The notes: a model not told the origin generated them from the sequence alone. Shown: positions 10,800 to 36,306, numbered from the stretch's first letter. The stretch is DNA of 64,000 nucleotides from Candidatus Omnitrophota bacterium (GCA_030650425.1 JAUSED010000009.1:32904-96903); one strand, 5' to 3'. Numbers and translations are program-made.

Positions 10800-11385
10800 T
10801 TATTTTATAGGTTCAATTCCTACCGCCTACATCTTTGGCCGTTTGATTAAAGGCGTAGATATCCGTAAATTCGGCTCAGGAAATGTCGGAGCGACCAATG
10901 CCCTTAGGCTATTAGGTAAAGGCTGGGGGATAACGGTATTAGTTTTAGATATACTCAAAGGGTTTTTACCTGTAATATTCCTATATAATATTCTAGGTTC
11001 TAAGTCCAATCTATCATTGGAAACCTTCTGTATTCTTATCGGCGTAAGTTGTATCTGCGGCCATAACTGGACGATCTTCTTAAGGTTTAAAGGCGGCAAA
11101 GGTGTGGCTACCACATTAGGCGTATTTTTGGGGCTCTCCGTAATCATCCCCGGACTAAAGATTGTCCTGGGGTTAACTATCCTAGTCTGGTTAGTTACAT
11201 TCATGATTAGGAGAGTTATCTCTCTGGCATCAATATTGGCTGCTTTAAGTTTTCCTTTATTCGCGATATTATTCAGGCAATCCCCCGGCCTGACTTTTAT
11301 AAGTATACTACTGGCAGCATTCATTATCTTCCGTCACAAATCCAACATCAAAAGAATCCTCGCGGGGAAAGAAACTCGCCTTTAG
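10768..11385 (+). CDS. plsY: Glycerol-3-phosphate acyltransferase PlsY
   Basis: GSGNVGATNALR motif on a multi-TM protein. It overlaps the pgsA end. Confidence 0.85.
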   Translation: MLWTVLGIIISYFIGSIPTAYIFGRLIKGVDIRKFGSGNVGATNALRLLGKGWGITVLVLDILKGFLPVIFLYNILGSKSNLSLETFCILIGVSCICGHNWTIFLRFKGGKGVATTLGVFLGLSVIIPGLKIVLGLTILVWLVTFMIRRVISLASILAALSFPLFAILFRQSPGLTFISILLAAFIIFRHKSNIKRILAGKETRL

Positions 11386-11415
11386 AAACCGCTTTCTTTT
11401 TAACCCCAAATAGGC

Positions 11416-11444
11416 TTGAAAGCACCTTGGCAAGCCTTTATACT
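11416..11444 (+). promoter_or_regulatory. Sigma-70-like promoter (TTGAAA-17 nt-TATACT) upstream of the 110-aa ORF
   Basis: A near-consensus -35/-10 pair with a 17-nt spacer. An AAGGGG RBS sits before the ATG at 11468. Confidence 0.4.
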
Positions 11445-11467
11445 CTGTCTTGAAGGGGTGAATTAAA

Positions 11468-11800
11468 ATGCGCGACCTATTGTTTAAGAACTTGACTTCT
11501 GACGACCACAGGCGCAAGATAATCGCCAGCTCTGAAATTGTGGAAAAACAGGGCGTGCGCAGTATCATCCGCAGGCATTTTATCTGCATGGTTAAGGAAA
11601 TCAAAGATGAGCGTAATATCCAAAAACCGTTGCCGCATCTTTATATCCTTAAAGAACATAACACTAGAGAGCAAAAAGAAAAGTTTTTCTGCAAAATCAA
11701 AGGCAGCCTCTGTGCGGTACATAAAGGTAAATTATTATTAGTTATCTTTATGCATTCCCTCAAAATTGACCTCGTAACTCTTCCGCAGCAAGTAAACTGA
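11468..11800 (+). CDS. Hypothetical protein (110 aa), basic, no recognisable domain
   Basis: An ORF with its own promoter-like signal and RBS. No family recognised. It lies in an AT-rich accessory segment upstream of the PIN gene. Confidence 0.35.
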   Translation: MRDLLFKNLTSDDHRRKIIASSEIVEKQGVRSIIRRHFICMVKEIKDERNIQKPLPHLYILKEHNTREQKEKFFCKIKGSLCAVHKGKLLLVIFMHSLKIDLVTLPQQVN

Positions 11801-11855
11801 TTTTTCTTAAAGACTAGTTGCATATTACGGAAATACATGGTATAAGTTATTTGTT

Positions 11856-12329
11856 ATGAAGATACCCAAGTTTTATTTTGATACATCAATATTTAATTTT
11901 GCGCTTGCTGATGATGTTCCCACGGAAAGGGAAATTACTCTTAGGCTTCTTGAAGAAGTAAGAGGCGGCAAGTACGAGGTATTCATTTCGGAAGTAGTTT
12001 TAAGAGAAATAAACAGAGCCCCGCAAGAGAAAGCGGTAAAATTAAGAGACTGTATCAAGAAAATAAATCCAGAAGAGCTTATTTTGGATGAGAATACTCT
12101 ATCTTTAGCGAAAGAATACATAGACAAAGGGGTTATCCCGCCAAAATACGAAGACGATGCGTTGCACATTGCGGTAGCTTCGGTAAATAATTTGGATGCA
12201 ATAGTGAGTTGGAATTTTACCCATATCGTAAAATTAAAGACTAAGCGGGAAGTTTCAGGAATAAACACCCTCATGGGATACAAGCCTATAGAAATCTGTT
12301 CTCCTCAGGAGGTGATTGAAAATGCTTAA
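11856..12329 (+). CDS. PIN-domain protein (VapC-like ribonuclease fold)
   Basis: FYFDTS (first acidic residue), EV..E, DALHIAVA and a C-terminal SWNFTHI region match a PIN-domain variant. A promoter-like TTGCAT-17-TATAAG lies upstream. Confidence 0.7.
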   Translation: MKIPKFYFDTSIFNFALADDVPTEREITLRLLEEVRGGKYEVFISEVVLREINRAPQEKAVKLRDCIKKINPEELILDENTLSLAKEYIDKGVIPPKYEDDALHIAVASVNNLDAIVSWNFTHIVKLKTKREVSGINTLMGYKPIEICSPQEVIENA

Positions 12330-12492
12330 AGAATCAGGACCAATGAAAGAGATCCACGAAATTCAGGAAATACTTTACGAAGAGCATAAAAAAATGACAA
12401 ATAAAGAGAAGCTTGTTACGCTTCACCGTGAAGCGGAAGAGGCAGAAAGAAAATACGGCTTCACCCTAAGAAAGGTTTCTCATGTAAAATAA
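12322..12492 (+). CDS. Small charged helical ORF (56 aa), translationally coupled to the PIN gene
   Basis: The ATG at 12322 overlaps the PIN stop by 8 nt (ATGCTTAA). It encodes MLKESGPMKEIHEIQEILYEEHKKMTNKEKLVTLHREAEEAERKYGFTLRKVSHVK. It is absent from the ORF track because it is under 60 aa. Confidence 0.35.
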   Translation: MLKESGPMKEIHEIQEILYEEHKKMTNKEKLVTLHREAEEAERKYGFTLRKVSHVK

Positions 12493-12555
12493 CTTTTACC
12501 CCGCACGATCCGTGTGTGCGGTGGTAAAAAAAAGAAAGCGTAAGAAATTAAATTA

Positions 12556-12583
12556 TTGACAAGACCAAAAACTGATATATAAT
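12556..12583 (+). promoter_or_regulatory. Near-consensus sigma-70 promoter (TTGACA-16 nt-TATAAT)
   Basis: TTGACA at 12556-12561 and TATAAT at 12578-12583, about 10 nt upstream of the 12594 start. Confidence 0.5.
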
Positions 12584-12593
12584 ATTTTTAATT

Positions 12594-15377
12594 ATGAGTA
12601 GAAAATATTTCGTCTTGTCGCTGCTTTTGCTCCTGCTGTTTTTGTCTCTTCTCACCGAAAAATCTTTTGCTTCTGGCCCGGCCGCGGATTATCTATGCGA
12701 GCTGGGCGCTACTTTTTATAGCATGGGCAGGTATGACGATGCTCTTTCGGAATTCAATAAGGCGTTGATGCTTGATCCCGGGAGCGAAACCGCCAAAAAA
12801 TATATTAACGATATTTTTAAACAAAATCTTAATCCCCTTGGCACAACCAAGCCAATATCAGAAGAAAAACCAGCCCTAAAAAAAGTCTCGAAAGTGCTTT
12901 CGAAAGAAGAAATAATGAGCGAGGCTATGAATAACTTCGAGAATAAAACTCCAGAAGACAAGAGCTATTCTCGCCCTTATAAATCTCCTGAAAAAAAGCC
13001 ATCAGCGGTAACCGAAGAAAGGGGAACTAAGGTCGGCCCCTTTAAAATAAGTGGAGAAACCCAGCTTAGTTTTGGGGTTACTCCTGATGACTTTATTTGG
13101 AAGAGGGCAAACTTTAATTTAAATGAGCGTTTTAAGAGCTACCGGATGACCTCTGATGCCGCGTTTGACCGCAGGTTTAATACCTTTGACCCTGCGATTT
13201 ACGACTCGCTTAGCCTGAATGTAGATACCGAAAATAAAGAGGGATTTAATTTTCATACCAATCTTACGGTTGACCCCTGGAGTTTCACCGGTAAAAGCAG
13301 TAAGGTAACAATCCCTTCCGGAAATGATACTGCAGAAATACAGTTGCGTTACTGGTCAAATACCGGCTATGTGGTGAATAATACAGCTTATACCTTGCTT
13401 GCAGGTGATACGATTAATATTCCAGAGCTTAAAGTTAAAAATGGTAAAACTGACCCTTTTATCGTTACTTCTGATAGGTTAGGTAATAATTTCAATATTC
13501 CTTCTATGAAAATAAAGCGCGAATTCCAGCCTTTGCGCGAATTCTGGCTTGATTATACCAATGATCAGGCTAAATTCCGCGTTTTTCCTATGGGCTACCA
13601 AGACCAGGCTTATACTTCCGATGACCCTATGAACATAACTAATCATGGTATATGGTGGAAGGATAGTAAGTGGTTGCGTCAGTATACACCGGGTAATTTT
13701 AATCCTAATGATGCTCCTGTTTCGTTTGTTAAGGGCCGTTGGGATGATTCACTTTCTTTTCAGGTCAAGGATAGCACAGGTAAATATCTAACCGCCTTAA
13801 GAGGTTTTGCTTTTAATTTCCAACCGGAGGAAAACACTTCATTGGATATTACTGCCGCGACTCCCAAGCATCTTTGGCAGGATTATGCCGCGGTGGATAA
13901 CGCGATTTTAGCCACCCGGCTAAAGCATTATTTTGCCGATAACTTTATGCTCGGAGCTACCTTTACCAACCGTTCCGGTTTTATCACCCAAAAAAGCCAG
14001 AAGCTGGATAGCTTGAATTTCGTCACTGGCGTGGATTTAGGCTATGAAATAGCCGACGGCCTAAAAGCCCAGGCCGAAGTTTTAGCTTCCCAGTCAAAAT
14101 ACGATATGAGCAATGCCGGCTACGAGACCGATGCCAAAGGAAATGCCTATTATTTTTCTTTTATTACCCGCTACCCTTATAAGAAGATTATGGATTTAAA
14201 ATATGGATATGACGATATAGCTATAGATAAGGACGAGAGTTTCTTGGTAAAGGGAAAGTTTTACCTTAGCCGTATGGATTCAGGATTTGATTCGGCGCTT
14301 TCGGATTATCATAATACCCGGCAGGATGTCTTTTGGTCAAGGCATATCCATTTTCGCACGCCTTTGGATTATTATAGCGAAGGACTGGATAAGCCTGTTG
14401 ACCATTGGGGAGAGCTTAATTCTACGCGCATCGGAGACGGTATTGATTCCGGCAGGAGCACCATAGGGTTTCGGCTGGAAACTTTCTTTGAGGATAAATT
14501 TACCAATCTTTTTGATGTGCGTAATGTGCATAATCAACAAGGAAAATTTGTGGAAAACGTAGCGCGGGATGAAGCAACGTTAAAACTCACGGATAAACTT
14601 ACGGCCAAAGGTTTGGGTATTTATCATAAATTACCTAAAACTGTTGGCGGAATAGATCCGTTTGTCTATGATGGTAAGACCGGGAACTTCTTTATTAATA
14701 ACGATGTACCGGATGGAGTGAATCCTACGCTTAAAACCGGCTCTATTGGTTTAAATTACGATTTCTTTGACTGGTTGAGTTTAAATGGTATCTATGAACG
14801 TACGAATGATTACACCTTAGCTTACGGTGATTTTCCTCGTAATGTGCTAAGAAATGACACGACTTTAAACAGCGTAACCTTTCAGGATAGTAATCGTTAC
14901 CGTTCTGTCACACCTTTTCTTTTTAACCAAGGCGTCTTCCCTCAGGCCCCGTATGAATTTTATAATGTATTTAAATGTGGTTTAAAGATAATGCCTTTAG
15001 ATAATCTGGAGATTTATCTTGATTACACCAGAAATGAATTTGAAGCTGCTTCTATGATTTCTGATAGTATGAATCATGTGGGTATAGATATTGCCTATAT
15101 GCCGACTAAGAAGATGGGTATGTTTTTTAAATATACCTACTCTCGTTCTCAGGAACTACAGAGGTTACAAGATGGAATTACTGAACCCTTAGGCCACCAT
15201 AATTTCTTTGGCGAATTCAGGTATCTGCCTTCCAAGGATGACCAGCTAATTTTAGAGTATGGAGTGGGTGACTATACTAATATCGGTAATCTTGGCTCTA
15301 TGGATCCCTATGGTGGAGGCATGCTTACCTTAGACACGCAGCACATCATCCGCGCTTATTACCGCAGGAAATTTTAA
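12594..15377 (+). CDS. Large secreted protein: signal peptide, N-terminal TPR-like repeat, long beta-rich region ending in aromatic residues (...YYRRKF). It is a putative outer-membrane beta-barrel.
   Basis: A signal peptide (MSRKYFVLSLLLLLLFLSLLTEKSFA), a TPR-like helix pair, and about 750 aa rich in alternating aromatic and polar residues with a C-terminal Phe, as in Omp85-targeted beta-barrels. Confidence 0.45.
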   Translation: MSRKYFVLSLLLLLLFLSLLTEKSFASGPAADYLCELGATFYSMGRYDDALSEFNKALMLDPGSETAKKYINDIFKQNLNPLGTTKPISEEKPALKKVSKVLSKEEIMSEAMNNFENKTPEDKSYSRPYKSPEKKPSAVTEERGTKVGPFKISGETQLSFGVTPDDFIWKRANFNLNERFKSYRMTSDAAFDRRFNTFDPAIYDSLSLNVDTENKEGFNFHTNLTVDPWSFTGKSSKVTIPSGNDTAEIQLRYWSNTGYVVNNTAYTLLAGDTINIPELKVKNGKTDPFIVTSDRLGNNFNIPSMKIKREFQPLREFWLDYTNDQAKFRVFPMGYQDQAYTSDDPMNITNHGIWWKDSKWLRQYTPGNFNPNDAPVSFVKGRWDDSLSFQVKDSTGKYLTALRGFAFNFQPEENTSLDITAATPKHLWQDYAAVDNAILATRLKHYFADNFMLGATFTNRSGFITQKSQKLDSLNFVTGVDLGYEIADGLKAQAEVLASQSKYDMSNAGYETDAKGNAYYFSFITRYPYKKIMDLKYGYDDIAIDKDESFLVKGKFYLSRMDSGFDSALSDYHNTRQDVFWSRHIHFRTPLDYYSEGLDKPVDHWGELNSTRIGDGIDSGRSTIGFRLETFFEDKFTNLFDVRNVHNQQGKFVENVARDEATLKLTDKLTAKGLGIYHKLPKTVGGIDPFVYDGKTGNFFINNDVPDGVNPTLKTGSIGLNYDFFDWLSLNGIYERTNDYTLAYGDFPRNVLRNDTTLNSVTFQDSNRYRSVTPFLFNQGVFPQAPYEFYNVFKCGLKIMPLDNLEIYLDYTRNEFEAASMISDSMNHVGIDIAYMPTKKMGMFFKYTYSRSQELQRLQDGITEPLGHHNFFGEFRYLPSKDDQLILEYGVGDYTNIGNLGSMDPYGGGMLTLDTQHIIRAYYRRKF

Positions 15378-15381
15378 ATTT

Positions 15382-15458
15382 GTCATTGCGAGGGCACGAA
15401 GTGCCCGAAGCAATCTCTGAAACGGGATTGCTTCGTCGCTAGCGCTCCTCGCAATGAC
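15382..15458. terminator. Compound palindrome between convergent genes; likely a bidirectional terminator or structured element
   Basis: The outer 12-bp inverted repeat GTCATTGCGAGG...CCTCGCAATGAC encloses inner inverted repeats GCACGAAGTGC and CGAAGCAATC...GATTGCTTCG. Confidence 0.4.
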
Positions 15459-15467
15459 TACCGAGTT

Positions 15468-18400
15468 TTATACTAAGTAAATATCTATCTTACTGATCTG
15501 GCGTGATCTTATTGCTTCCGCGTATGGCGAGGGTATAAGCGAAGAATTAAATTCGATAGGCTTATCTTTATCCCAAAGGATAACTTTAATAATTTGCGCC
15601 GCATGCTTGCCAAAGGTATCTTTTCTTTTAGGGTTATGATAGGTAACGTTGATTTTGCCTAGGAAATTAAAACTGTAATTACCTCTTTTGTTAAATAGCC
15701 AGCCGTTAAGTTTAGGCTCAAACCTTAAAGCTAATTTATCATTTTCTAGGAAGAAAGGGTTCTTGCCGATATTCATTGTCAGCCATATTTGGAGGAATTC
15801 CGCGGTTGACCCTGAGAGCCGGGCGACAAATCCGTTTCCGTGCAGTTTTTTATCGGGAAAGGCGCTGCTCACTAAAAAAGAGGAGTTTTCTAAAATACTT
15901 CTTCCATAAACAGCGGGTTTCTGAAAAGGGATAAGCACATTTTTAAAATCCGCGTAGAACTCTTCATATAGCCCTGTCTTTAAAAGCTCCAAAAGGTATT
16001 TATATTCCATATGCAGCCAGATGGATTCATTTTCCAGCCAGCCCGGGGTAAAGATCCGGCATCTTCCGATATCTTCCGGCATATTTCCTAAAGCCGCGGT
16101 TACCTTATACATCTTAAGTTTTTGATCAAAGAGCCCGCTATTTTTTGTCCCCAAGTGAATCTTACGGGCTTTCTCCTGATTATCAGCGAGCCTAAGTCCG
16201 TGCATTTGCGTCTCAAGGAATAGCGGAAGCTTAATTTGCCTAAATTCAGTTGGTTTGATAAAATGCTCGTCGCCAGTTTTGTAGGTAATCACTTCGTTGA
16301 TAAAATAACCGCAATAGGTTTTTTTCTTTTCATCCCAAGCCTTATTTATCCCGGCATCGATTTGCTTGAGCAATGTATCGATAATTCCGATTATTTCGCG
16401 GGGAGAGATTTCTCTTTCATTTCCGCTAACACCCATTTTGGTTAAGAGGCGGTAATTTTCTTTAGCCGAGTGGGTTTGGTCCCACCAACTATAATCATCA
16501 ATCTTATTATTAGATAAATCCAGGGTGAGCTGGTTAAGCCCGCTTAAAAGCGCGTAAATCTCTTCGGTTATATTCAACCTACCAACGCCGGTTTTTTGCA
16601 GAGCGCCTTGAATGAAAAGGCAGAGCCGTTTTAACTCGAATGTCTCGCAAAGCGACGAACCAAAGAGGGCAGGAAGGCCGTTTAGCGAGTCAAACCAATT
16701 AGGTTTATCCGCCTCCATTTCTATTCCTATACCGAATGGATCAAGGGAAGCGAATTTATTAGCAACTAGACAGAGTAGCTTATTAATTAATACTGTTTCA
16801 TAGACTTGCTCTCCTTGGGACAAGGCTCTTACTAGATGGGGAGATTCACGCCGCTTATGGAGTGCCTCTTTTTTAAAGTTATCGTTAACAACCGAATGTA
16901 ATTGTCGGGGTTTACCATTATAAAGAAGGTATTTTTCACTGCGCGGCTTAACCACTTCGGAATTATCGAAAAAAGTGAATTTTCTCTCTTCAAAAACTAT
17001 TTTTTTAAGCTCTTCCGGATAAACTTTTAAATAACTTTCCAGGATATCAAGGTTATAATGCCAATGGTCGCTCCAAAATCCTTCTCCGTGTTCAGCTTCA
17101 TCAATTTTAAGCGAAGAAGCGATGACTAGGTCGAGCAATTCGTCATAAGTTGCGTTGAGCTTGATCTTGTTATCTTCAATGAAGAGAATAAGCTCGCCGG
17201 GAGTAAATTTCTTCTCAAGGAATGAAAGTATCCTGTCGATTTTATTTTCGGGAGCAATGTTATTTAGTTTGGCCCTAAGGTTTTCTTTATCTTTCAGGAT
17301 AAAAATTGATCCCTTTACGGTTAGGGGATTAAAACCGTCTAACTGGATTAAGTTAAAGAGGGTAGTAACATTTTCATCTTTTATTTCAGGATTAAACCAG
17401 ATGTCGTTCCTGCGGTTCTGGTTTAAATCGCGGTAGTTCCCGTTTCCCTGAGCGAAGTAGGTAGGGGCGATCTGGAATTTATTATAATCGCGCTCAGGAT
17501 CCCCGTGTTTACGCGCATAAAGGTAAAATGTTTTCCCTGATTTAAAAGTAAGAGGATAGCCGCCGCGCATCAGGTTATCCAGATAGGTTTGTTGAGCATA
17601 GAGATCGAATACTTTTGAGCTTGAGGAAGTATGGATATCGTTCATTAATTCTTCAATAATCCGCCTGTTTTCTGCTTTCTTTTTTTCGAGGTAACCGCTG
17701 GAGGTAATTTTAGGGATAGCCTTATTGAGCGCCTCAAGGCTGCGCATGTAGCCAATCACTGAGTATAGGGTTTTTTCTTCCTCTTTTGCTAATTTTAGAT
17801 TTAGAAAAGAGAAGGCGGAAGGAGTTTTAGCGTTGAGCTTTTTAGACGCGGAAGCGCCGAGCCCCTTATTTTTAATAAAATTAATCGGTAAGGAAAAATC
17901 GGTGATTTCGGCGAAAACATCTTCAGCATCAATTATTGGTTGGGTAAGTTTTATTTGATTGCCTTCCGAAGTAAAACCTAAGTAAAAATTACCCTCGTTA
18001 ATATGTATAACTTCCGGCCGGTCAACTGGATCGACCTTAAGCCGGTAAAAAGGTGCTTTATTTTTTAGATTTTCTACCTCCATCCACGCTTCGATGGTCC
18101 GGGACATTTTTTTCAAGAAAAAGTTGTTCGTTCCAAAAGGGATTATTTGAGGTAAACCATCAATCAGCTCGATCTTTTTATCGGTTCTAGAGGTATTTTC
18201 TATGGTTAAAATCCGGCTAAGGCCGGCGTAGTTATCCGACGGGATATTGAAATATTCAACCCTTACTTTCAACCCTAAGGTAGAATTGGTTTCTTCAAGC
18301 GATAGCCCCCATGGGCTGATGAGCATTTTATTATGAATATTATAGTTAAGATTGCTAAAGCCGTTGTGAAAAGGTTCGTAAAAAATAGTTTTAGCTTGGG

Positions 18401-18716
18401 TAGATATTTTAATGAAAGTGCGGAAGCCTTGGCTGCTAACGAGTTGCCAGGCTTTATTCGCCGGGAGGAATTCCAGGATGGCATGGTCTTTATCTTTGAT
18501 CCCAAAACTTGAGATAGCCTGACCGCGGTTGACATAAAAGGTCCACATTGGTATGCCGTATTTACCGGCTATACCGGGAAAGAAATTGGAAAAGGGCTTG
18601 GCGTAGTTATAGTTTTCGATAACGAACTGGCCAGCCTCATTCAGGTAATATTTAGGTGTTTGAGTGGATATTTTCATCTGAAGATATTTTAGCCGATTTA
18701 GGCCTTTTGTCCACAA
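15468..18716 (-). CDS. Large cytoplasmic protein (1082 aa) with a glycoside hydrolase/phosphorylase-like (GH94 / (alpha/alpha)6-barrel) appearance
   Basis: No signal peptide. The N-terminal region resembles cellobiose/chitobiose phosphorylase N-domains. Central NYRDLNQNRRND and WLHMEYKYLLELL segments resemble the catalytic barrel. The assignment is tentative. Confidence 0.35.
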   Translation of the reverse strand: MWTKGLNRLKYLQMKISTQTPKYYLNEAGQFVIENYNYAKPFSNFFPGIAGKYGIPMWTFYVNRGQAISSFGIKDKDHAILEFLPANKAWQLVSSQGFRTFIKISTQAKTIFYEPFHNGFSNLNYNIHNKMLISPWGLSLEETNSTLGLKVRVEYFNIPSDNYAGLSRILTIENTSRTDKKIELIDGLPQIIPFGTNNFFLKKMSRTIEAWMEVENLKNKAPFYRLKVDPVDRPEVIHINEGNFYLGFTSEGNQIKLTQPIIDAEDVFAEITDFSLPINFIKNKGLGASASKKLNAKTPSAFSFLNLKLAKEEEKTLYSVIGYMRSLEALNKAIPKITSSGYLEKKKAENRRIIEELMNDIHTSSSSKVFDLYAQQTYLDNLMRGGYPLTFKSGKTFYLYARKHGDPERDYNKFQIAPTYFAQGNGNYRDLNQNRRNDIWFNPEIKDENVTTLFNLIQLDGFNPLTVKGSIFILKDKENLRAKLNNIAPENKIDRILSFLEKKFTPGELILFIEDNKIKLNATYDELLDLVIASSLKIDEAEHGEGFWSDHWHYNLDILESYLKVYPEELKKIVFEERKFTFFDNSEVVKPRSEKYLLYNGKPRQLHSVVNDNFKKEALHKRRESPHLVRALSQGEQVYETVLINKLLCLVANKFASLDPFGIGIEMEADKPNWFDSLNGLPALFGSSLCETFELKRLCLFIQGALQKTGVGRLNITEEIYALLSGLNQLTLDLSNNKIDDYSWWDQTHSAKENYRLLTKMGVSGNEREISPREIIGIIDTLLKQIDAGINKAWDEKKKTYCGYFINEVITYKTGDEHFIKPTEFRQIKLPLFLETQMHGLRLADNQEKARKIHLGTKNSGLFDQKLKMYKVTAALGNMPEDIGRCRIFTPGWLENESIWLHMEYKYLLELLKTGLYEEFYADFKNVLIPFQKPAVYGRSILENSSFLVSSAFPDKKLHGNGFVARLSGSTAEFLQIWLTMNIGKNPFFLENDKLALRFEPKLNGWLFNKRGNYSFNFLGKINVTYHNPKRKDTFGKHAAQIIKVILWDKDKPIEFNSSLIPSPYAEAIRSRQISKIDIYLV

Positions 18717-18730
18717 ATTTTTCTAATGTA

Positions 18731-18823
18731 GGGGACACAAACTAGGGGACACTTTCCTTTTGAGGCTTTCATTAGAGCCCTGACGGAAAGTGTCCCCTAG
18801 TTGTGAGTTAGGAAAGTGTCCCC
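18731..18823. repeat. Cluster of GGGGACACTTTCC / GGAAAGTGTCCCC inverted-repeat elements (intergenic copy 1)
   Basis: A partial GGGGACAC sits at 18731. A full 13-bp inverted repeat pair at 18745-57 and 18785-97 has a 27-nt spacer. An extra right arm lies at 18811-23. The spacer tail AGAGCCCTGAC is shared with the copy at 28826. Confidence 0.8.
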
Positions 18824-18844
18824 TATCTTTGAATCCGATTGTGT

Positions 18845-22077: not shown

Positions 22078-23269
22078 GAAAATTATCGCCTTATTAATGG
22101 TGATCATCGTGCTTTTAGCTTGTGCTACTTTGGCGATTTCCTTTGATAAGAAAAAGAGCAATGATTTGTACCGGCAGGTCGAACTTTTTTCGGATGTCTT
22201 GGCGGTTGTGGATACGGATTATGTGGATGAAGTAAAGCCAAAGGATCTGATTTATGGCGCTTTAAAAGGCATGCTCTCTTCCTTGGATCCGCACAGCCAG
22301 TTTATGGACGCGGATACTTACAATGAATTAAAATCGGATACCGAAGGGCAATTCGGCGGCTTAGGAATCGAGATCTCCTTGAAAGACGGGCTACTCACGA
22401 TCATTACGCCGATCGAGGATACTCCGGCTTGGCAGGCAGGGCTAAAAGCAGGAGACCGGATTGTGAAAGTTAATAATCAGTTAACCCGGGGAATAGACCT
22501 AAGCGAAGCGATGAAAAAGCTGCGCGGTAAACCGGGTGAAATAGTTAAGCTGACTATCTTGCGGGAGTCAGAGAAAAAGTTACTGGAGTTTTCGATTACC
22601 CGCGCAATCATCAAAATTAACGATATTAAAGAGGCGAAAGTATTGGAAGGAGGTATCGGTTATATCCGCATGTTGGAATTCAGGGATAACACTCCTAAGG
22701 ATTTTAATGCCGCGATTAAAAAGTTAGTTAAACTTAAAATGGACTCTCTGATATTGGATTTACGCAATAATCCGGGAGGAGTGCTGGAGAGCGCTTTAGA
22801 GATAACCGGAAAATTTATCCCCGAAGGGAAATTGATTGCTTATACTAAGGGCAGAAAAGAGAACCAAAATTTACAATTTAAGGCGCAAGCCAAGCATCCG
22901 ATGCTTAACTTGCCTATGGTGATATTAATCAATGAAGGGTCGGCTTCCGGAAGCGAGATTCTCGCCGGGGCATTGCAGGATTATAAACGAGCGGTAATTT
23001 TAGGGGAAAAATCTTTTGGTAAGGGCTCGGTGCAAACAGTTATACCTTTAAGCGACGGCTCGGCATTGAGATTGACGACCAGTAAATATTTTACTCCTTC
23101 GGGTAAAATTATCCATGGGAAAGGGGTTATCCCCGATCTAGTCGTAAGTAACGGGATTAAAAAAGAAAAAGATGAAGGGCCTTGGGAATACAAGTCGGAT
23201 TTACAGGTTATGGCGGCGGTCAATCTTATAAAGAAAGGGATTGCTTTGCCCCTTCGGGGCTCGCAATGA
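22070..23269 (+). CDS. ctpA: Carboxyl-terminal processing protease (S41) with a PDZ domain
   Basis: An N-terminal TM segment, a PDZ region (GLKAGDRIVKVN), and an S41 catalytic region GSASGSEIL...KGS. Confidence 0.85.
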   Translation: MNKKIIALLMVIIVLLACATLAISFDKKKSNDLYRQVELFSDVLAVVDTDYVDEVKPKDLIYGALKGMLSSLDPHSQFMDADTYNELKSDTEGQFGGLGIEISLKDGLLTIITPIEDTPAWQAGLKAGDRIVKVNNQLTRGIDLSEAMKKLRGKPGEIVKLTILRESEKKLLEFSITRAIIKINDIKEAKVLEGGIGYIRMLEFRDNTPKDFNAAIKKLVKLKMDSLILDLRNNPGGVLESALEITGKFIPEGKLIAYTKGRKENQNLQFKAQAKHPMLNLPMVILINEGSASGSEILAGALQDYKRAVILGEKSFGKGSVQTVIPLSDGSALRLTTSKYFTPSGKIIHGKGVIPDLVVSNGIKKEKDEGPWEYKSDLQVMAAVNLIKKGIALPLRGSQ

Positions 23270-23279
23270 CAGTTTTTTA

Positions 23280-28817: not shown

Positions 28818-28825
28818 CTACGCTA

Positions 28826-28877
28826 GGGGACACTTTCCTTTAGCAGCTTAGTAAGAGCCCTGACGGAAAGTGTCCCC
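28826..28877. repeat. GGGGACACTTTCC-26 nt-GGAAAGTGTCCCC inverted-repeat element (intergenic copy 2)
   Basis: It has the same 13-bp arms and the same AGAGCCCTGAC spacer tail as the copy at 18745-18797. It lies between acsC and the RACo gene. Confidence 0.8.
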
Positions 28878-28901
28878 TGATAGTGCCCTGTAGTGTGAGA
28901 T

Positions 28902-36064: not shown

Positions 36065-36119
36065 AAGATTAATTTACACTTCGGGAAGCTAAAAGTCAAA
36101 CATAATAAAAGATGCGCTC

Positions 36120-36166
36120 AGGGGACACTTTCCTACGCGCGTTTACTATCTGTTGGAAAGTGTCCC
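36120..36166. repeat. GGGGACACTTTCC-21 nt-GGAAAGTGTCCCC inverted-repeat element (intergenic copy 3)
   Basis: It has the same 13-bp arms as the copies at 18745 and 28826. It sits in the divergent region between the flippase and tilS. A further GATTTTCC...GGAAAATC inverted repeat follows. Confidence 0.8.
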
Positions 36167-36306
36167 CTGCTAGGGAAAAAACAGATTTTCCTCGCAGGGG
36201 AAAATCAAGCGGTGCTCACTCGAATCAAGCCAAGCCCCCCCCTAAGCCGTAATAAGCTTATAATGTAATCATTGAAAAGCAGTCTAGTTATGCTAATATA
36301 AAAAGT

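Follow-up and report, generated by a model that had tools for sequence, protein, structure and literature searches.

A PIN-domain gene and its small downstream partner form a conserved, mobile cassette and a candidate toxin-first toxin-antitoxin module in a Candidatus Omnitrophota genome

Positions 11,386 to 18,716 of a 64,000-nucleotide (nt) stretch of Candidatus Omnitrophota DNA (GCA_030650425.1, JAUSED010000009.1:32904-96903; the whole stretch is called the window below, and positions are counted from its first letter) lie between plsY and gatC and hold five open reading frames (ORFs). Two of them, a gene for a PIN-domain protein and an ORF of 56 amino acids (aa) that overlaps its 3' end, are the main subject of this report. 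We show by comparison with homologous loci that these two genes form a conserved unit in toxin-first order, that the small ORF is a coding gene under purifying selection, and that the pair is a mobile cassette of about 0.75 kb. From the sequences and from a structure model of the larger protein we favour, with a probability of roughly 0.6, the reading that the pair is a type II toxin-antitoxin (TA) module of the VapC kind, in which the toxin gene comes first and the antitoxin has no DNA-binding domain. An earlier note on this DNA had placed all five ORFs at coordinates that ORF calling reproduces, and had taken the whole region for an accessory segment, a view contradicted by the gene order of relatives. 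The elements of the cassette are as follows.

11801-12555, plus strand: inserted two-gene cassette (own promoter, PIN gene and small ORF), delimited by synteny, spacer-edge alignment and guanine-cytosine (GC) content
11818-11846, plus strand: cassette promoter TTGCAT-17-(TGg)TATAAG with an extended -10, recognised from sequence and conservation, with an inferred transcription start
11856-12329, plus strand: PIN gene, 157 aa, from the ORF call
12307-12314, plus strand: Shine-Dalgarno (SD) sequence AGGAGGTG of the small ORF, located near the 3' end of the PIN gene, 7 nt upstream of the ATG
12322-12492, plus strand: small ORF, 56 aa counted from the ATG, from the ORF call

The association of the two genes extends across bacterial and archaeal groups. 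Among 79 loci from Omnitrophota, Elusimicrobia, Nitrospirota, Thermodesulfobacteriota, Lachnospiraceae, Oscillospiraceae, Bacteroidota, Spirochaetota, Planctomycetota, Chloroflexota, Acidobacteriota, Promethearchaeota and Woesearchaeota, 75 have an ORF of 35-89 aa (mostly 50-80 aa) whose first codon lies, on the same strand, at -43 to +5 nt relative to the PIN stop codon. Of 80 species-level loci, which represent more than 15 phyla, 73 give a match to a profile of 36 small-protein sequences where the small ORF is expected; of the other seven, three are on contigs cut off right after the PIN gene. With a profile of seven sequences, the ORF at the expected place is recovered in 32 loci at E <= 1e-3; over 3316 six-frame ORFs, the other matches of this profile are same-strand second copies only, four of them just downstream and one, in a marine Omnitrophota metagenome-assembled genome (MAG; L007), in a second PIN module 1 kb away.

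The two proteins also diverge together. The divergence of the PIN protein and that of the small protein are correlated (r = 0.70, a value reached in none of 999 Mantel permutations), and the small protein evolves faster, with a mean identity of 23% against 39% for the PIN protein. Duplication and fusion involve the same two partners: the small gene is tandemly duplicated in five loci (L021, L023, L046, L065 and L077), two complete modules stand in tandem in the marine Omnitrophota MAG (L007 1089-2728), and a Lachnospiraceae MAG (L034 3001-3651) has an in-frame PIN-small fusion, which is either real or an assembly error. A conserved upstream gene or antitoxin was sought in 55 loci and none was found, and no third gene is conserved around the pair; an Xre-like upstream gene occurs in some Lachnospiraceae loci and is not general. 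The earlier note had proposed a translationally coupled, toxin-first pair, a proposal that a lack of conservation as a unit and of coding conservation in the small ORF would have overturned. Conservation of both kinds is present in the loci compared, and the PIN gene and small ORF are thereby shown to be a conserved, translationally coupled unit with the putative toxin gene first.

The small ORF opens with an ATG (12322-12324) that lies within ...gaaAATGCTTAA, and it overlaps the PIN stop codon (12327-12329) by 8 nt, as the earlier note had seen. That note had also described the ORF as missed by a 60-aa cut-off; it is nevertheless annotated, being called by NCBI (Q7K98_05090, 'hypothetical') and by two other gene callers. 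Its product is charged and predicted from its sequence pattern to be helical, and the small proteins share the motif [I/V]-[H/R]-x-I-[R/Q]-E, followed after about 8 residues by M-[T/S]-x-x-E. When close relatives are compared, synonymous sites of the small ORF are saturated (proportion of synonymous differences, pS, 0.68-1.1) against a nonsynonymous proportion (pN) of 0.16-0.30; for the PIN gene, the same kind of comparison gives a ratio of nonsynonymous to synonymous substitution (dN/dS) of 0.07-0.11. The small protein is represented by eight independent database clusters that are 66-100% identical. These comparisons show the small ORF to be a coding gene under purifying selection.

Searches with 36 small proteins gave no consistent Pfam or NCBIfam family match, and a profile search of the PDB came back empty; a match to LIC13259/LIC11441 (E 0.014-0.02), obtained with 2 of the 36 members only, was rejected as noise. 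Every public name found for the protein is 'hypothetical' or 'uncharacterized'. The partner family is undescribed in the open-access literature searched, including the accessible parts of the papers on PIN classification (PMC5499597) and on NetFlax (PMC10440598).

The PIN protein and its 56-aa partner are both 100% identical to Candidatus Omnitrophota MAG proteins, and NCBI names the former 'type II toxin-antitoxin system VapC family toxin'. Its match to Pfam PIN (E 2e-4) falls just short of the cut-off, which its relatives pass, and a search of its profile against PDB sequences found no true relative. The AF2 model (pLDDT 92, pTM 0.86) has five strands and seven main helices, and a Foldseek search with it gave 27 PDB matches at E <= 1e-3, with few exceptions to VapC or PIN proteins; the best were VapC toxins of Shigella, Rickettsia, Salmonella, M. 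tuberculosis and Pyrococcus, with a TM of about 0.6 and 12-19% identity. In an alignment of 17 sequences, E51, D101 and D114 are invariant and D9 nearly so, and T10, S11, S118, W119, N120 and H123 are invariant as well. On the strength of the modelled fold and the conserved acidic residues, the protein is a VapC-like PIN-domain nuclease and a putative toxin. The family is large, with more than 500 database clusters and at least 573 loci confirmed among contigs drawn from one genome per species. In one homologue, P0010 (216 aa, 70% identical), the FDTS motif is followed by 38 extra residues, which resemble the translation of a repeat element inserted into the PIN gene.

The signals for expression differ between the two genes. 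Between the end of the cassette promoter and the PIN ATG are 9 nt that contain no SD (a leaderless-like arrangement), and four related loci (L082, L084, L085 and L002) conserve the -35, the extended -10 and the distance of these elements from the ATG. The small ORF has AGGAGGTG, which is embedded in the conserved ...SPxEV codons of the PIN gene, and an SD of at least 4 nt precedes the small ORF in 36 of 39 loci.

Comparison of the surroundings of homologous pairs shows that the cassette is mobile. Homologues 80-88% identical to the pair of the window all keep the 8-nt overlap and lie in unrelated neighbourhoods: one adjoins HigB, Multi_ubiq/ThiF/BubE and Peptidase_M78 genes, another adjoins AAA_14/DUF4143 genes, and a third is downstream of an exosortase/EpsI locus. 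Distant members are found on plasmids. In the Leptospira interrogans plasmid pLiSL47 (L088 1492-2137) the pair directly follows the replication initiator gene, and in a Thiodictyon plasmid (L089 1390-2068) the partner ORF has 68 aa and does not appear among the genes that PLSDB lists for the RefSeq record. The family was not found in a phage genome collection, and viral contigs gave 8 loci only. No direct repeats or target-site duplication were seen. A 21-nt imperfect inverted repeat that brackets the cassette (11839-11859/12480-12500) was considered as a mobility or mRNA-cyclising signal and rejected, as it is unconserved in five related cassettes.

If the pair is indeed a TA module of the VapC kind, we infer toxicity, neutralisation, a mode of binding, an RNA target and translational control of the ratio along the following lines. 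The toxin, a ribonuclease dependent on Mg2+, would be the 157-aa PIN protein. The 56-aa antitoxin would consist of two helices joined by a cap at M-[T/S]-x-x-E, with [I/V]-[H/R]-x-I-[R/Q]-E in helix one, and by direct contact with the PIN protein it would close off the acidic groove of the active site. Perhaps a conserved basic residue of the small protein is inserted into this groove, by analogy with VapB/FitA, whose C-terminal arm reaches into the VapC/FitB active site. A protective excess of antitoxin may be set by translation rather than by autorepression: in the clade of the window, the PIN start has no SD, whereas the small ORF has a strong AGGAGGTG and overlaps the PIN stop codon. Translation signals are proposed for this role because neither a DNA-binding domain in the partner nor a conserved third gene was seen.

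Several observations weigh against this interpretation. First, the small protein shows no RHH, AbrB, Phd or HTH signature and no known antitoxin fold in family and PDB searches (the earlier note had remarked on the lack of RHH, AbrB and HTH signatures, which the Pfam, NCBIfam and PDB searches bear out). Two-gene type II systems do not usually have such an antitoxin, and a partner without a DNA-binding domain leaves the autoregulation of the module unexplained. Second, no PADLOC model matches the module. Third, this PIN family has an invariant Asn (N120) after strand 4, at the position of an Asp in classical VapC, with H123 nearby in the hallmark motif SWNFxH; given these two invariant residues, the catalytic site may differ from that of classical VapC. 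Fourth, an SD precedes the PIN gene in 25 of 39 loci, mostly Firmicutes, and the SD-less PIN start is limited to the clade of the window. Finally, a non-toxic nuclease with an obligate subunit would also account for conservation of the gene pair.

Among the known systems closest in kind is VapBC of the FitAB type. It shares with the present pair the VapC-like PIN fold, conserved acidic residues, a small co-transcribed and coupled partner, and a mobile, multi-copy distribution that includes plasmids. The pair differs from it in being toxin-first, in a partner without an RHH, AbrB, Phd or HTH domain and without sequence relation to VapB, and in a PIN clade that has no sequence-detectable PDB relative and carries SWNFxH (N120, H123) where VapC has an acidic residue. 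In HigBA, MqsRA, HicAB and BrnTA the toxin gene likewise precedes the antitoxin gene in one operon; however, their toxins have RelE-like, HicA or BrnT folds rather than PIN, and their antitoxins carry DNA-binding domains. PaaA2 (of PaaR2-PaaA2-ParE2) and epsilon (of omega-epsilon-zeta) are small helical neutralisers without a DNA-binding domain. Those systems, in contrast, have a third regulator gene, of which none is conserved around the PIN pair, and their toxins are unrelated. The NetFlax study established that antitoxins from many unrelated families pair with PIN toxins, and in some of its node pairs the toxin gene stands first (PMC10440598). Its PIN nodes (for example SpnP3/DUF2680, SpnP2/DUF2080 and SynP1) resemble the present pair in joining a PIN toxin to a non-canonical partner, and theirs are validated by assays of toxicity and neutralisation; on the other hand, a Pfam search at E <= 0.1 placed none of the 36 small proteins in DUF2680, DUF2080 or another family.

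Were the pair a true TA module, it would bring a new antitoxin family for PIN toxins, one that is 'hypothetical' in every database consulted, and a compact two-gene type II system without a DNA-binding component, whose regulation would become a question. The module is present in more than 570 species-level genomes, among them those of Omnitrophota, Nitrospirota, gut Lachnospiraceae, Bacteroidota, Spirochaetota (including Leptospira plasmids) and Asgard and Woese archaea. We put forward as possible, and as tentative, the wider proposal that these constitute a previously undescribed and widespread TA family, with an antitoxin of about 55 aa folded as a helical hairpin without a DNA-binding domain and with a ratio fixed by translation rather than by conditional autorepression. 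Since the family occurs in cultured organisms (Leptospira interrogans plasmids, Pontiella, Acididesulfobacillus and Parablautia), it is directly testable. A new PIN partner alone would not surprise a specialist in TA systems; the breadth of the family, the lack of a DNA-binding part and the cultivable hosts make it a worthwhile target.

Of the alternatives, the first overlaps with the TA reading and differs from it in role only. The pair may serve abortive infection or phage defence, the small protein being a sensor or a labile inhibitor that is released on infection. Close homologues do adjoin HigB, Multi_ubiq/ThiF/BubE and AAA_14/DUF4143 genes, the occupied spacer in the window is a variable slot, and TA modules, PIN ones included, are increasingly tied to defence in the literature (PMC10440598). 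We consider such a role possible, if somewhat improbable, in view of the lack of a PADLOC match, the near absence of the family from phage genomes, its rarity on viral contigs (8 loci) and the rep-adjacent position on the Leptospira plasmid, which points to plasmid maintenance.

The second alternative, which we judge unlikely, is a non-toxic ribonuclease of two subunits, in which the small protein would be a cofactor, a specificity or stabilising subunit, or an activator, and which would act in RNA processing or inducible defence. Co-inheritance, translational coupling and the fusion in L034 fit any obligate heterodimer equally, the partner has none of the known antitoxin domains, and the active site, with N120 and H123 invariant, departs from classical VapC. 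What argues for a TA module instead is, first, the patchy and mobile distribution, with plasmid copies beside rep and TA or defence neighbours, which is typical of addiction or defence modules and not of housekeeping RNases. In addition, tandem duplication of the module and a fast-evolving partner (23% vs 39%) are typical of TA pairs.

A third alternative, which was the framing of the earlier note, takes the whole of 11.4-18.7 kb as one horizontally acquired island whose genes work together. In its favour, the region has a low GC content (40.3%, compared with 43.1% elsewhere in the window), its intergenic spacers are longer, and it contains strong matches to promoter consensus. The description of the region as AT-rich is right in that its GC content falls in the lowest 0.6% of 7.3-kb windows; however, the shift is mild, at under three points. 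The cassette itself has a GC content of 37.0%, which no other part of the region undercuts and which falls in the lowest 0.8% among windows of equal size. The other features of the region are listed here.

11416-11444, plus strand: promoter-like site TTGAAA-17-TATACT ahead of the 110-aa ORF, predicted, 10 of 12 consensus positions
11468-11800, plus strand: 110-aa ORF, from the ORF call
12556-12583, plus strand: promoter TTGACA-16-TATAAT of the 927-aa gene, predicted, 12 of 12 consensus positions
12594-15377, plus strand: 927-aa ORF, from the ORF call
15382-15458, no strand: nested perfect palindrome between convergent genes, with 12-nt outer and 10-nt inner perfect arms
15468-18716, minus strand: 1082-aa ORF, from the ORF call
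18736-18825, no strand: second palindromic element, inverted pairs of GGAAAGTGTCCCCTA units, intergenic, with the GH161 gene on one side and gatC on the other

Gene order in relatives refutes the island. Relatives were taken as contigs reached by tracing homologues of the 927-aa protein, and there are four of them, all from Omnitrophota (L086, L087, L098 and L099). In L086, L087 and L099 the order is lepA-lepB-pgsA-plsY, an ORF of 111-139 aa, a gene of about 930 aa, a gene of about 1067 aa on the minus strand, and gatC-gatA-gatB; the 927-aa homologues are 68, 64 and 73% identical to the protein of the window, respectively, and the PIN gene is absent from the equivalent locus. In these three contigs, which lack an insert, the spacer between the 110-aa gene and the 927-aa gene measures 67-105 nt. 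The closest relative, L098 (927-aa homologue 75% identical), has the same order with a different gene, of 1092 aa (L098 1657-4935), in the spacer that holds the PIN pair in the window; this gene has no match in Pfam, PADLOC or the PDB. Spacer alignment places TTGACA at the equivalent position in L086 and L087, and on this evidence the promoter TTGACA-16-TATAAT belongs to the core outer-membrane protein gene rather than to the cassette. Both promoters that the earlier note had called strong were recovered, the one at 12556 being a perfect match.

Because gene order is kept in four relatives, which have it without the PIN pair, the 110-aa, 927-aa and 1082-aa genes are core rather than accessory. 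Synteny thus defines a conserved Omnitrophota core block of plsY, the 110-aa gene, an outer-membrane protein of about 930 aa, a convergent GH161-type phosphorylase and gatCAB, in which the PIN and small-ORF cassette of about 0.75 kb is, by the same comparison, the sole inserted or mobile part of 11.4-18.7 kb. The outer-membrane protein is conserved over hundreds of homologues, the named ones almost all from Omnitrophota, the PIN pair is found elsewhere without these neighbours, and nothing ties the pair functionally to the outer-membrane protein or the phosphorylase. One island of cooperating genes is therefore very improbable. What lies between the 110-aa gene and the outer-membrane gene is variable, the PIN pair in the window and the 1092-aa gene in L098, and this spacer looks like an insertion hotspot. 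For annotation, the lesson is that an apparent island can be mostly core genome, with 0.75 kb alone mobile.

Scarcely credible, finally, is the idea that the 56-aa ORF encodes no functional protein and is an overlapping frame open by chance, or a leader with a regulatory role, which its shortness, its lack of a family match and the frequent skipping of such sizes by gene callers (it is unannotated on the Thiodictyon plasmid) might suggest, and which coding conservation refutes, with homologous ORFs in 73 of 80 loci across phyla, saturated synonymous sites in a conserved protein, a conserved SD and eight clusters 66-100% identical.

At the plsY end of the block, a Logan assembly of the source organism (L081 6972-7469, corresponding to about 10827-11324 of the window) carries a call of a 165-aa antisense ORF instead of plsY, which is an annotation artefact. 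The 110-aa ORF that follows plsY had been called an orphan; in fact, ORFs at the same position in L098, L099, L086 and L087 encode proteins 83, 75, 55 and 55% identical to it. The protein is basic, has the pattern MRDLLxKNLTS...RRHF...FFCKIKG... and is kept after plsY in all four Omnitrophota relatives, with no match in Pfam, NCBIfam or the PDB. By its conservation and position it is the product of a conserved Omnitrophota core gene outside the PIN cassette, a real protein without an assigned function.

The 927-aa protein had been described as a secreted TPR/beta-barrel protein ending in ...RRKF, and the analysis agrees with this. Its N-terminus (MSRKYFVLSLLLLLLFLSLLTEKSFA followed by SGP) is a Sec-type signal peptide and the only hydrophobic segment. 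A single TPR at residues 31-63 scores just above the Pfam cut-off, and it is followed by a low-complexity linker and a beta-rich domain of about 780 residues that is rich in Y, F, G, N and D. At the C-terminus, YYRRKF, residues Y922, Y923, R924 and F927 are invariant in 30 sequences, which have 240 invariant columns overall; the beta-signal is partly canonical, with R at position -2. A structure model of low confidence matches outer-membrane barrels only. Identity is 58-75% among the 120 matches listed, the named members being almost all from Omnitrophota, and a profile search of 1.84 billion representatives gave 125 relatives at E < 1e-30. In some of these the barrel module stands behind other domains, a GH116 beta-glucosidase (P0330, 1490 aa) or beta-helix/CarboxypepD_reg domains (P0350, 2721 aa), and these fusions suggest a modular outer-membrane anchor or channel. 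From the model and these features, the protein is probably a large outer-membrane barrel encoded by a core Omnitrophota gene. It has no sequence relation to OprD/Occ, AlgE, MtrB, LptD or PgaA/BcsC/PelB, and it differs from the TPR-porin exporters PgaA, BcsC and PelB in having one TPR at threshold and no polysaccharide synthase neighbours (these are plsY, the 110-aa ORF and GH161). No Pfam model covers the beta-rich module of about 780 aa, which in Omnitrophota always stands tail to tail with a GH161 phosphorylase. One may speculate, from its constant place next to a beta-glucan phosphorylase, that the protein has to do with the handling of glycans. A phylum-wide and highly conserved outer-membrane protein of about 930 aa without a known family, fixed beside a GH161 phosphorylase, matters for Omnitrophota biology.

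The convergent 1082-aa protein is, by full-length sequence similarity, clearly a GH161-family glycoside phosphorylase. Its residues 31-1079 align with residues 3-1030 of 9h8v_A at E 1.6e-230, and it matches 9qqk_A, a structure deposited under the name 'gh161 phosphorylase', at E 2.7e-230, with similarity from residue 30; its match to the GH94 laminaribiose phosphorylase 6ggy (E 0.005) covers the catalytic region only, and a GH149 NCBIfam match is weak and partial. GH161 has been described as a beta-1,3-glucan phosphorylase family related to GH94 and GH149 (PMC6484121). The former label 'GH94-like' thus names the right group of GH94, GH149 and GH161, and the family within it is GH161 (1e-230 vs 0.005 for GH94). 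As in known GH161 phosphorylases (9qqk, 9h8v; PMC6484121), similarity is full-length and the length is similar; no N-terminal signal peptide was seen by eye, no predictor having been run. Frame and coordinates of the ORF stand as first given, and the start is probably, judging from alignment, the ATG at 18677 (1069 aa), 13 codons downstream of the TTG at 18716, because orthologues in synteny have 1065-1069 aa and similarity to the structures begins at residue 30-31.

The nested palindrome at 15382-15458 was confirmed with both its perfect arms. Its RNA fold has an energy of -48 kcal/mol (z = -7.6), and it belongs to a repeat family of the form GTCATTGCGAGG ... CGAAGCAATC / GATTGCTTCG ... CCTCGCAATGAC, of which a half copy (GATTGCTTTG...CTCGCAATGAC) lies at another intergenic spot, 23238-23272; the 10-mer CGAAGCAATC is over-represented, with 14 matches where 5 are expected. 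The palindrome probably serves as a terminator in both directions or belongs to a family like the repetitive extragenic palindromic (REP) elements, and we regard both it and the GH161 gene as ordinary. The element at 18736-18825 folds with -44 kcal/mol (z -6.1); sub-threshold Rfam 'miRNA' matches were set aside as this same hairpin. The GGAAAGTGTCCCCTA element is dispersed, at 18736-18825, 28824-28879 and 36119-36169, with 9 matches against 1.3 expected, and it could be a REP-like element or an operator.

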